From the NCBI RefSeq assembly GCF_054482525.1, contig NZ_CM137006.1: DNA of 64,000 nucleotides. The stretch is one strand, 5' to 3'. Below are positions 2-3,165 of this stretch, one piece after another. Position 1 is the first letter of the stretch. Each line of letters opens with the position of its first letter. Below the pieces are notes generated by a model, which searched no databases, was not told where the DNA came from, and was given only the letters and a program-made list of their open reading frames with translations. The position numbers were made by a program, and so were the translations under genes.

Positions 2-724
2 GTGGGCACTGATATTTTTGTCGTTGGCGAGAACCGCAGCGGCGTGCGCAGCGCAGAACAGATGCTGGCAGATTATGCGCCGTTGAATAAAGTCGACAGC
101 GCCCGTCGCTGTGGCCTCTATTTTGGTCGTCTGGAAAAGCAGCCGGTATTTGATGCCGATAAATTCTGGGGCGAATATAACGTGGATGGCCTGACGGTCA
201 AAACGCTGCCGGGCGTGTTTAGCCGCGACGGTCTGGATGTCGGTAGCCAGTTACTGCTCTCGACGTTAACTCCGCACACGAAAGGTAAAGTGCTGGATGT
301 CGGCTGTGGCGCGGGCGTGCTTTCTGTTGCCTTTGCGCGCCATTCACCGAAAATTCGTCTCACTCTGTGCGATGTCTCTGCGCCAGCGGTAGAAGCCAGC
401 CGCGCAACACTTGCGGCCAACGGTGTTGAAGGTGAAGTCTTTGCCAGTAACGTCTTTTCCGAGGTGAAAGGTCGTTTTGATATGATCATCTCCAACCCGC
501 CGTTCCACGATGGGATGCAAACCAGCCTCGATGCGGCGCAAACGCTGATTCGCGGCGCGGTGCGTCATCTTAATAGCGGCGGCGAGCTGCGAATTGTAGC
601 GAACGCCTTCCTGCCTTATCCGGACGTGCTGGATGAGACATTTGGCTTCCATGAAGTTATCGCACAAACCGGGCGCTTCAAGGTGTATCGCGCCATTATG
701 ACCCGCCAGGCGAAGAAAGGTTGA
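2..724 (+). CDS. rsmC: 16S rRNA m2G1207 methyltransferase, C-terminal 240 aa (5' end outside window)
   Basis: ORF open from window edge; SAM-methyltransferase motifs ([17 protein letters not shown]); sits next to the leu tRNA cluster as in K-12. Confidence 0.85.
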
Positions 725-854
725 GTATCTGATATCTGTCGCCGCATACCGTGTCGGATGCGGCGTACACGCCTTCTCTGACCGACAAACGAATTATCCA
801 CAATTCGCTGATGGACATTTTTCCAGCAATTACACCTCCGGCGATAATTAACTA

Positions 855-882
855 TTGACGAAAAGCTGAAAACCACTAGAAT
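855..882 (+). promoter_or_regulatory. sigma70 promoter candidate for the tRNA-Leu operon (TTGACG, 16-bp spacer, TAGAAT, GC-rich discriminator)
   Basis: TTGACG at 855-860 and TAGAAT at 877-882, AT-rich upstream, GCGCC discriminator, about 40 bp upstream of first tRNA. Confidence 0.55.
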
Positions 883-923
883 GCGCCTCCGTGGTAGCAA
901 TTCTTTTTAAGAATTGATGGTAT

Positions 924-1010
924 GCGAAGGTGGCGGAATTGGTAGACGCGCTAGCTTCAGGTGTTAGTGTCCTTACGGACGTGGGGGTTCAAGTCCCCCC
1001 CCTCGCACCA
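924..1010 (+). tRNA. leuQ: tRNA-Leu (anticodon CAG), 87 nt with encoded CCA
   Basis: GCGAAGGTGGCGGAATTGGTAGACGCG...GGTTCAAGTCCCCCCCCTCGCACCA; long variable arm typical of tRNA-Leu; symbol assigned by order in operon from memory. Confidence 0.9.
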
Positions 1011-1038
1011 AAAACCACGTTGATATTGCTCGCACTGG

Positions 1039-1125
1039 GCGAAGGTGGCGGAATTGGTAGACGCGCTAGCTTCAGGTGTTAGTGTTCTTACGGACGTGGG
1101 GGTTCAAGTCCCCCCCCTCGCACCA
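1039..1125 (+). tRNA. leuP: tRNA-Leu (anticodon CAG), 87 nt, single-base variant (GTTCTT vs GTCCTT in variable arm)
   Basis: Second tandem copy, identical except one nucleotide. Confidence 0.9.
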
Positions 1126-1159
1126 AACGAGGCGATATCAAAAAAAGTAAGATGACTGT

Positions 1160-1246
1160 GCGAAGGTGGCGGAATTGGTAGACGCGCTAGCTTCAGGTGT
1201 TAGTGTCCTTACGGACGTGGGGGTTCAAGTCCCCCCCCTCGCACCA
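1160..1246 (+). tRNA. leuV: tRNA-Leu (anticodon CAG), 87 nt
   Basis: Third tandem copy, identical to first. Confidence 0.9.
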
Positions 1247-1284
1247 ATTATCTTTACTTCCTTTCTTGTTGCTTCCCTGTTTTA

Positions 1285-1521
1285 TCATCCCTGCTTCAAA
1301 TTCATTATCATCAGCATGATGCCAGCAATAAGCGCCAGGCACGATGGCAGCAAAACGTAATGCCGCAACTGTTTGTGATACAGCATCACCGGCGTCAATA
1401 CTAATCCCATCAGAATGATAATCCGCCATTGATCCGGCGATAAATCCGCATACATCAGCCCTGCAATCAGCAATCCCGGCAGCAACACTCCCCAGCCACT
1501 GCCCAGCGTACGTTGCAACAT
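1285..1521 (-). CDS. yjjZ: small hydrophobic membrane protein, 78 aa (internal Met of a 115-aa ORF)
   Basis: ORF 1285..1632 minus; 78-aa version from Met at 1521 matches remembered length of K-12 YjjZ; hydrophobic; Fur-box-like sequence just upstream. Confidence 0.55.
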   Translation of the reverse strand: MLQRTLGSGWGVLLPGLLIAGLMYADLSPDQWRIIILMGLVLTPVMLYHKQLRHYVLLPSCLALIAGIMLMIMNLKQG

Positions 1522-1539
1522 GGTTTCATCTCTTTCATT

Positions 1540-1560
1540 GATAATGATAACTAATATCAT
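1540..1560. promoter_or_regulatory. Fur box candidate (GATAATGATAAC...)
   Basis: tGATAATGATAACtAATATCAT resembles Fur consensus GATAATGATAATCATTATC; lies in divergent yjjZ/fhuF promoter region. Confidence 0.5.
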
Positions 1561-1628
1561 ATGATAATTTTTATCATTTGCAAGCCAGAGAAATCCCTTG
1601 CTATCGGGTAAACCTATCGCTAGGATTA

Positions 1629-1643
1629 GCAATCATTATCATT
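1629..1643. promoter_or_regulatory. Fur box candidate upstream of fhuF
   Basis: GCAATCATTATCATT, about 20 bp upstream of fhuF ATG; fhuF is a classical Fur-repressed gene. Confidence 0.5.
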
Positions 1644-1661
1644 TAGATTACTATCCCGATT

Positions 1662-2450
1662 ATGGCCTATCGTTCCGCACCGCTCTATGAAGATGTTATC
1701 TGGCGAACGCATCTCCAGCCGCAGGATGCTGGGCTTGCACAAGCCATACGGGCGACGATCGCCGAACATCGTGAACATTTGCTCGAGTTTATCCGCCTGG
1801 ATGAACCCGCTCCGCTTAACGCCATGACGCTGGCGCAATGGTCATCAACGAATGCGCTAAGTTCTCTACTCGCGGTCTATTCCGATCATATCTATCGCAA
1901 CCAACCAACGATGATCCGCGAGAACAAACCGCTGATCTCACTATGGGCGCAATGGTATATCGGCCTGATGGTGCCACCGTTAATGTTGGCGCTGCTGACG
2001 CAGGAAAAAGCATTAGATGTGTCGCCGGAACATTTCCACGTTAAGTTTCACGAAACCGGACGCGCCGCCTGTTTCTGGGTCGATGTGTGTGAAGATAAAA
2101 ACGCAACACTACATTCGCCGCAGCAGCGAATGGAAACGTTAATCAGTCAGGCGCTGGTTCCGGTAGTGCAGGCATTAGAAGCAACGGGAGAGATCAACGG
2201 CAAACTTATCTGGAGCAATACCGGTTATTTGATCAACTGGTATCTGACTGAGATGAAACAGCTGCTTGGCGAGGCGACGGTTGAATCGCTGCGCCATGCC
2301 CTCTTTTTTGAGAAAATGCTCACGAACGGTGAAGATAATCCACTCTGGCGTACCGTGGTACTGCGCGACGGCCTGCTGGTGCGCCGCACTTGCTGCCAGC
2401 GTTATCGCTTACCGGATGTGCAGCAATGTGGCGATTGTACGCTGAAATGA
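1662..2450 (+). CDS. fhuF: ferric-siderophore reductase, 2Fe-2S protein
   Basis: 262 aa; C-terminal CC-x10-C-x2-C motif (CCQRYRLPDVQQCGDC). Confidence 0.9.
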   Translation: MAYRSAPLYEDVIWRTHLQPQDAGLAQAIRATIAEHREHLLEFIRLDEPAPLNAMTLAQWSSTNALSSLLAVYSDHIYRNQPTMIRENKPLISLWAQWYIGLMVPPLMLALLTQEKALDVSPEHFHVKFHETGRAACFWVDVCEDKNATLHSPQQRMETLISQALVPVVQALEATGEINGKLIWSNTGYLINWYLTEMKQLLGEATVESLRHALFFEKMLTNGEDNPLWRTVVLRDGLLVRRTCCQRYRLPDVQQCGDCTLK

Positions 2451-2487: not shown

Positions 2488-3165
2488 TTAATAGGGATGC
2501 AACACATTACTTGCTTCGCAATGCCGCATACATAACAGAATATCTGCGGCCTCCAACAACCCTGCATCAGAACTGACGCCCAGTTTCGACATCACATTAA
2601 ATTTATGTGCACGGATCGTTTTGATATTGCGTTTAAGCTGCTCGGCAATTTGTGTCATTGAGTAGCCACGCGACATAAAGCGCAATATTTCTCTCTCCGT
2701 CGGGCTTAGCGTTCGGCTTTGATTAATGTACCACTGATTGTTCAGTCGGTCGGTCGCCTGACGTACACCATTTAATGACAAAAAGAGTTCCTGATGAAAA
2801 ATCTCCAGCGTTGACGCTTTACTTAATACACCGTCCAACGGTGATGGCGACAATGAACCAATCAGCCGAGCTTCAATATCATCATCCGCAATAACTAAAC
2901 GCCGGGTACGCGGAAACTTAATCGCCAGTTCAGTCAGGCAAGATAATCCCTCTCTGCGCTCACTTCTCATGGCAGAAAAAGAAAAAATGACCGCCGCAAA
3001 CGAGATCCGCGACATGGCATCCTGAAATGACTCCTGACTGGTATAGGTATGGAGCTTATAAGGGTTACCCGCAAACTTTCTGAATAAACTCTCAATACCG
3101 ATACTACTCATGACGCATTTTTCTATGAGTGCGACATTTCTCTTCTTAATTCGGCTGTGTTCCAT
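2488..3165 (-). CDS. bglJ: LuxR/FixJ-type transcriptional regulator
   Basis: 225 aa; C-terminal LuxR HTH ([36 protein letters not shown]); overlaps yjjQ 3' end. Confidence 0.85.

Follow-up and report, generated by a model that had tools for sequence, protein, structure and literature searches.

Organization of the locus

Three tandem genes for tRNA-Leu(CAG) lie near the start of the window, the 64-kb stretch of DNA that was analysed in this study. ARAGORN identified exactly three tRNA genes in the entire window, all of them tRNA-Leu(CAG) genes of 87 nt on the + strand. The Rfam tRNA covariance model (RF00005) was matched by each copy over its full length (model positions 1-71), with a score of 48.5 bits against a gathering score of 29. 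Both programs call the three genes at the positions given in Table 1, and the tandem arrangement described in the first-pass annotation is thereby upheld. ARAGORN places the anticodon (cag) at position 35 in an anticodon loop of 7 nt in all three copies. The long variable arm of a type II tRNA-Leu appears in the cmscan alignment as a 12-nt insertion at the variable region. Each gene ends in ...CTCGC-A-CCA, so that A73 is the discriminator and the 3' CCA is encoded. The array was also picked up by Tandem Repeats Finder, as a single entry at 924-1247 with a period of 121 and 2.7 copies. The spacers of 28 nt and 34 nt bear no relation to one another, and a chance match cannot be the source of three near-identical 87-mers.

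The copies are almost invariant. An alignment of the three 87-mers has 86 identical columns out of 87, and copies 1 and 3 are the same throughout. The sole difference is at nt 48: the outer copies have C there (window positions 971 and 1207) and copy 2 has T (window position 1086), so that the local context reads GTCCTT in the outer genes and GTTCTT in the middle one. The first-pass annotation had likewise described copies 1 and 3 as identical and copy 2 as carrying T for C in the variable arm, and the alignment agrees in both respects.

Every gene also contains a run of eight C residues (995-1002, 1110-1117 and 1231-1238) that spans the 3' strands of the T-stem and the acceptor stem. The tRNA 8-C run is an extreme indel hotspot according to a published mutation-accumulation study. 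In the first copy of strain NRG 857C (positions 325-412 of locus L005) the run is nine C residues long instead of eight; this is a genuine frameshift-type variant or else an error in sequencing the homopolymer.

The neighbouring genes are rsmC upstream and yjjZ downstream, followed by fhuF, in the same order as in the K-12 and PCN033 annotations. A REP-type palindromic element stands right after the stop codon of rsmC, at window positions 744-783. The small RNA naRNA4 was considered as a candidate for this element and rejected; its Rfam score of 23.6 bits (E = 0.28) falls far short of the gathering score of 59.5, and the site is just a REP element. A Fur-box-like sequence, GATAATGATAACTAATATC, occupies positions 1540-1558 in the divergent yjjZ-fhuF intergenic region. 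It has three mismatches to the 19-bp consensus, where no such match is expected by chance. It overlaps predicted promoters on both strands, and A/T-rich repeats extend to about position 1585. By its sequence, the site is consistent with iron regulation of fhuF. Further along, a 225-aa ORF on the - strand (2488-3165) corresponds to bglJ, a LuxR-type regulator, in the K-12 and PCN033 annotations. The gene yjjQ lies beyond it, and the gene order is ordinary.

Table 1. Features of the tRNA-Leu(CAG) array and its surroundings (window coordinates)
Feature	Position	Strand	Basis
rsmC, 3' part (16S rRNA m2G1207 methyltransferase), upstream neighbour	2..724	+	ORF; rsmC annotation in PCN033 and K-12
-35 hexamer TTGACG	855..860	+	Consensus scan; invariant across 21 sequences
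-10 hexamer TAGAAT, 16-bp spacer from -35	877..882	+	Consensus scan; invariant across 21 sequences
GC-rich discriminator GCGCCTCC	883..890	+	Read directly from the sequence
5' leader hairpin, CAATTC / GAATTG, 6 bp, 7-nt loop	898..916	+	RNAalifold consensus
leuQ, tRNA-Leu(CAG) copy 1, C at nt 48	924..1010	+	ARAGORN, Rfam, alignment, K-12 comparison
Spacer 1, 28 nt, starts AAAACC	1011..1038	+	Agrees with PMC2190699 text on the sequence after leuQ
leuP, tRNA-Leu(CAG) copy 2, T at nt 48 (window 1086), U.G with G55 (window 1093)	1039..1125	+	ARAGORN, Rfam, alignment, K-12 comparison, variable-arm folding
Spacer 2, 34 nt, starts AACGAG	1126..1159	+	Sequence extraction; PMC2190699
leuV, tRNA-Leu(CAG) copy 3, C at nt 48	1160..1246	+	ARAGORN, Rfam, alignment, K-12 comparison
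3' trailer, unstructured, C-rich, G-poor; antisense to yjjZ at its end	1247..1330	+	No terminator-like site; composition
yjjZ (DUF1435, 78 aa), convergent neighbour	1285..1521	-	ORF within 1285..1632; PCN033 and K-12 annotation

Identity with the K-12 operon

The array corresponds to a well-known operon. A pairwise alignment of the window with MG1655 showed 100% identity from about 85 nt 5' of the first gene to 54 nt 3' of the last. The identical stretch includes the promoter, the leader, the three genes and both spacers. The comparison with K-12 leuQPV had been proposed in the first-pass annotation, and the identity to which it led extends to the T of leuP. In the annotation of K-12 MG1655 the genes are leuQ (b4370), leuP (b4369) and leuV (b4368); in order of transcription, copy 1 is leuQ, copy 2 is leuP and copy 3 is leuV. 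The window is oriented in reverse of the K-12 coordinates. Copies 1 and 3 are identical to K-12 tRNA-Leu1, for which charging with leucine by LeuRS is established.

The closest record to window positions 700-1700 is E. coli PCN033, which is 100% identical. Of 5426 complete E. coli genomes, 5405 match at least 80% of this interval. The locus places the window on the chromosome of E. coli, at rsmC-leuQPV-yjjZ-fhuF. Taken jointly, the best explanation of the region as the E. coli leuQ-leuP-leuV operon has a probability of about 0.97. The operon, its promoter, its maturation by RNase P alone and the distinct sequence of leuP are already known from the literature and from standard annotation.

Promoter and leader

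A single promoter precedes the array. Its -35 and -10 hexamers together match the consensus at 10 of 12 positions. Both hexamers and GCGCCTCCGTGGTA are invariant in the 21 sequences compared, namely the window and 20 orthologous arrays, which represent at least 11 named genera, whereas the flanks diverge. A GC-rich discriminator is a hallmark of stable-RNA promoters under stringent control. The sequence, with its near-consensus hexamers, 16-bp spacer and GC-rich discriminator, thus fits the stringent-type promoter that had been proposed upstream of the cluster. Stringent control of leuV was reportedly described by Pokholok et al. in 1999. Ross et al. are said to have addressed the regulation of the leuV promoter in the same year, and a paper on this promoter by Opel et al. 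reportedly followed in 2004. The promoter is the leuV promoter; its control by Fis, by growth rate and by the stringent response is taken from published work and is cited here as such. The action of Fis on the leuV operon is the subject of one sentence in PMC1468432.

The leader contains a short hairpin upstream of the first gene. RNAalifold found three of its pairs to be changed on both sides across genera (CGATAC / GTATCG is one example). Because pairs change on both sides in other genera, the comparison suggests that the hairpin is a conserved structure upstream of the RNase P site.

RNA processing and transcription termination

How the leuQ leuP leuV transcript matures has been studied by Mohanty and Kushner (PMC2190699). 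They found that the transcript is cut into pre-tRNAs by RNase P and that RNase E is not needed. A/U-rich RNase E sites right after the CCA are absent from the leuQPV spacers (PMC2190699). The text of the same paper gives the sequence that follows the CCA as CCAAAAACC after leuQ and CCAAACGAG after leuP, and the window is exactly the same. Table 1 of PMC2190699 swaps these two sequences relative to its own text, and the genome agrees with the text. The leuV trailer is removed by PNPase and RNase II (PMC2190699).

No classical terminator follows the array. A scan of positions 700-1700 found no intrinsic terminator hairpin with a U-tract after leuV on the + strand. In the first 84 nt after leuV, C outnumbers G by 22 to 8 (ratio 2.75), while the window as a whole is 25.7% C and 24.8% G. 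Since there is no hairpin and the composition is C-rich and G-poor, termination within the trailer is probably Rho-dependent. Rho-dependent termination was also inferred in PMC2190699 from the missing hairpin.

The yjjZ unit converges on the array, and its stop codon lies 38 nt downstream of leuV. The first-pass annotation had the 3' end of yjjZ following the cluster directly. Its location downstream of the array stands, but the two do not abut, as a short trailer lies between them. Because there is no intrinsic terminator and the convergent yjjZ is only 38 nt away, read-through from the very strong leuV promoter would run antisense to yjjZ.

Structure of the leuP variant

The base at nt 48 belongs to the variable arm. 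This arm forms a hairpin with the strands G46-U47-C48-C49 and G54-G55-A56-C57 around a UUAC loop, and C48 pairs with G55. In leuP, U48 turns this C-G pair of the 4-bp stem into a U.G wobble. The isolated variable-arm hairpin has four pairs in both forms; its folding energy is -5.2 kcal/mol with C48 and -2.3 kcal/mol with U48. The Rfam tRNA score does not change between the two forms (48.5 bits). When the entire unmodified tRNA was folded by minimum free energy, neither form gave the cloverleaf, which is usual for unmodified tRNA sequences. The structural statement rests on the covariance model and the isolated variable-arm hairpin. U48 most likely has little or no effect on the function of leuP. 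The variant is distinguished in a tRNA-seq preprint, which lists leuP of K-12 apart from the identical set of leuQ, leuT and leuV.

Variation of the array within E. coli

Both forms of the tRNA are common in the species. The exact T-form was found in 4536 of 5429 E. coli records (83.6%), and the C-form in 5375 records. Spacer junctions were counted as lower bounds on the number of arrays, as one SNP can abolish a megablast seed; spacer 1 was present in at least 4733 genomes and spacer 2 in at least 4984. The number of matching places reaches 10-11 in some E. coli genomes. Sixty records were sampled systematically; of these, 55 had three tRNA-Leu genes at the locus and four, mainly O157:H7, had a single gene. 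The remaining record was a 294-kb sequence with a partial match only.

The variation that does occur is of the kind produced by recombination between repeats. The single-copy loci of O157:H7 (Z1816) and EcPF16 contain one C copy, with the leader of leuQ before it and the trailer of leuV after it, as unequal crossing-over of the outer copies would be expected to leave them. Of the three-copy arrays that were fetched, four have the C-T-C order of the window, K-12 and PCN033. A single strain, QEC11-421, has C-C-C, and another, Seattle 1946, has C-T-T, in which the T has spread to the third copy. By their arrangement, the C-C-C and C-T-T arrays are the signature of gene conversion. On a small scale, the array illustrates concerted evolution in nature, and it matters for counts of tRNA gene copies and for the mapping of tRNA-seq reads.

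Conservation in other genera

The T-form extends well beyond E. coli. A scan with the exact T-form pattern, using one genome per species, returned at least 120 loci, a sample that is biased to T-bearing loci. Among the matches listed, there are at least 32 three-copy C-T-C arrays. They come from Escherichia, Salmonella, Citrobacter, Klebsiella, Raoultella and Kosakonia, and also, among the same matches, from Enterobacter, Phytobacter, Pseudocitrobacter, Pseudenterobacter, Intestinirhabdus and Franconibacter. In most of the C-T-C arrays among the matches listed, all three tRNAs match the E. coli sequences exactly. Compared with the window, the spacers of the C-T-C arrays are 65-100% identical and the trailers 52-88%, and the YjjZ proteins of C-T-C loci outside Escherichia show 58-73% identity. 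Synteny was searched at 31 C-T-C loci, and rsmC and yjjZ flank the array wherever the fetched DNA extends to them. Because the C-T-C pattern and the rsmC/yjjZ synteny are common to at least 11 named enterobacterial genera, the T of the middle copy is, on this comparative evidence, ancestral to them; it is old and not a strain mutation.

Other arrangements of the two forms were also found. Two-copy arrays, either T-C or C-T, occur in Xenorhabdus, Photorhabdus, Morganella and Proteus. In Klebsiella, Enterobacter, Citrobacter, Pantoea and E. whittamii, the T-bearing gene that stands alone is leuT, which belongs to the argX-hisR-leuT-proM operon.

Origin and meaning of the leuP variant

The age of the variant raises the possibility that selection maintains it. 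U48 leuP could be a functionally distinct isodecoder that is held beside the C48 form, for example through an effect on stability, modification, processing order or fragment production. The persistence of C-T-C arrays in at least 11 syntenic genera, with tRNAs otherwise identical to those of E. coli despite the divergence of the trailers and of YjjZ, favours such a role. So does the fact that both forms coexist in Xenorhabdus, Morganella and Proteus, whose arrays have two copies, and, with leuT, in many genera. Gene conversion does happen, as the C-C-C and C-T-T arrays of E. coli show, and it has not erased the difference. If selection were responsible, the two forms would predate the split of the enterobacterial genera and would have been kept despite gene conversion, and both forms are found in the Morganellaceae as well.

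Several observations nevertheless make a selected role unlikely. The base pair is kept, and it lies in an arm that is not known to serve as an identity element for E. coli LeuRS. The T is dispensable at the locus in O157:H7 and EcPF16, which have a single C copy there, and in QEC11-421 with its C-C-C array; the T form is absent from 16% of E. coli records altogether. The gene that carries the T also varies, since leuT has T in Klebsiella and C in E. coli, as expected of a tolerated allele that is shuffled by conversion. The cross-genus scan shows that the T allele is old and widespread, but it covered T-bearing loci only, and the frequency with which the T is lost falls outside its scope. Neutrality of U48 is the better reading, because T-free strains exist (including O157:H7), the T-carrying gene varies by lineage and the base pair is kept.

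It is far less probable that leuP has lost its function and is decaying into a tRNA pseudogene. The gene alone departs from the majority sequence, and its variable-arm hairpin is about 2.9 kcal/mol weaker. However, it carries only one change, which preserves the pairing, and its covariance-model score is the same as that of the other copies. The leuP sequence is exactly conserved across genera, whereas a pseudogene would gather more changes. Northern blots show leuP within QPV and QP intermediates that are processed by RNase P (PMC2190699). On these four grounds, namely pairing, model score, conservation and northern blots, the pseudogene was rejected.

A sequencing error or a private mutation of the strain has next to no probability and is refuted: a single transition in one of three repeats is a kind of change that an assembly error could make, but the same T is found in K-12 MG1655, in the E. 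coli records counted above and in the middle gene of arrays from at least 11 further named genera. The one-base difference of leuP is real and old.

Proposed model

In summary, one strong sigma-70 stable-RNA promoter would drive a single transcript. This transcript is expected to start with a leader of roughly 35 nt and to end in an unstructured trailer; between them would lie the three type II tRNA-Leu(CAG) sequences, each of 87 nt with its CCA, separated by two short spacers. The pre-tRNAs would be released by RNase P without help from RNase E. Transcription would probably stop in a Rho-dependent manner in the C-rich trailer, followed by trimming by 3' exonucleases. The three genes account for about three quarters of the supply of tRNA that reads CUG, the commonest codon of E. 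coli. As for nt 48, U48/C48 is best viewed as an old allelic difference between paralogues that is occasionally erased or spread by recombination. Gene conversion would lead to C-C-C or C-T-T arrays, and unequal crossing-over between the copies would lead to a single-copy array.

Comparison with known systems

The closest known system is the leuQ-leuP-leuV operon of K-12, which encodes tRNA-Leu1. It is the same as the window throughout the interval from the promoter to leuV, has T at nt 48 of leuP and has the same neighbours, rsmC, yjjZ and fhuF. The flanks differ. K-12 has about 75 nt of extra REP-type sequence between rsmC and the promoter, and this extra sequence is the chief difference between the two strains in the region. 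The trailer and yjjZ also differ by a few substitutions.

A fourth tRNA-Leu(CAG) gene of K-12, leuT, belongs to the argX-hisR-leuT-proM operon. Its mature tRNA is the same as that of leuQ and leuV, with C at nt 48. Unlike the leuQPV genes, leuT sits elsewhere in the genome, with unrelated tRNA genes around it, and requires RNase E for its processing (PMC2190699). ARAGORN did not find leuT anywhere in the 64 kb of the window.

The valV-valW operon resembles leuQPV in its mode of expression. It also consists of tandem, near-identical tRNA genes that are processed by RNase P alone, and it ends in an unstructured, presumably Rho-dependent terminator (PMC2190699). It differs in that it has two valine tRNA genes at another locus, with a spacer of only a few nt.

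Finally, the leuV promoter shares its main features with promoters of the rrn P1 type. In both, the -35 hexamer is near consensus, the spacer has 16 bp, the discriminator is GC-rich, A/T-rich sequence lies upstream, and activation by Fis has been published. In contrast to the rrn P1-type promoters, the leuV promoter drives an operon that contains tRNA genes only.
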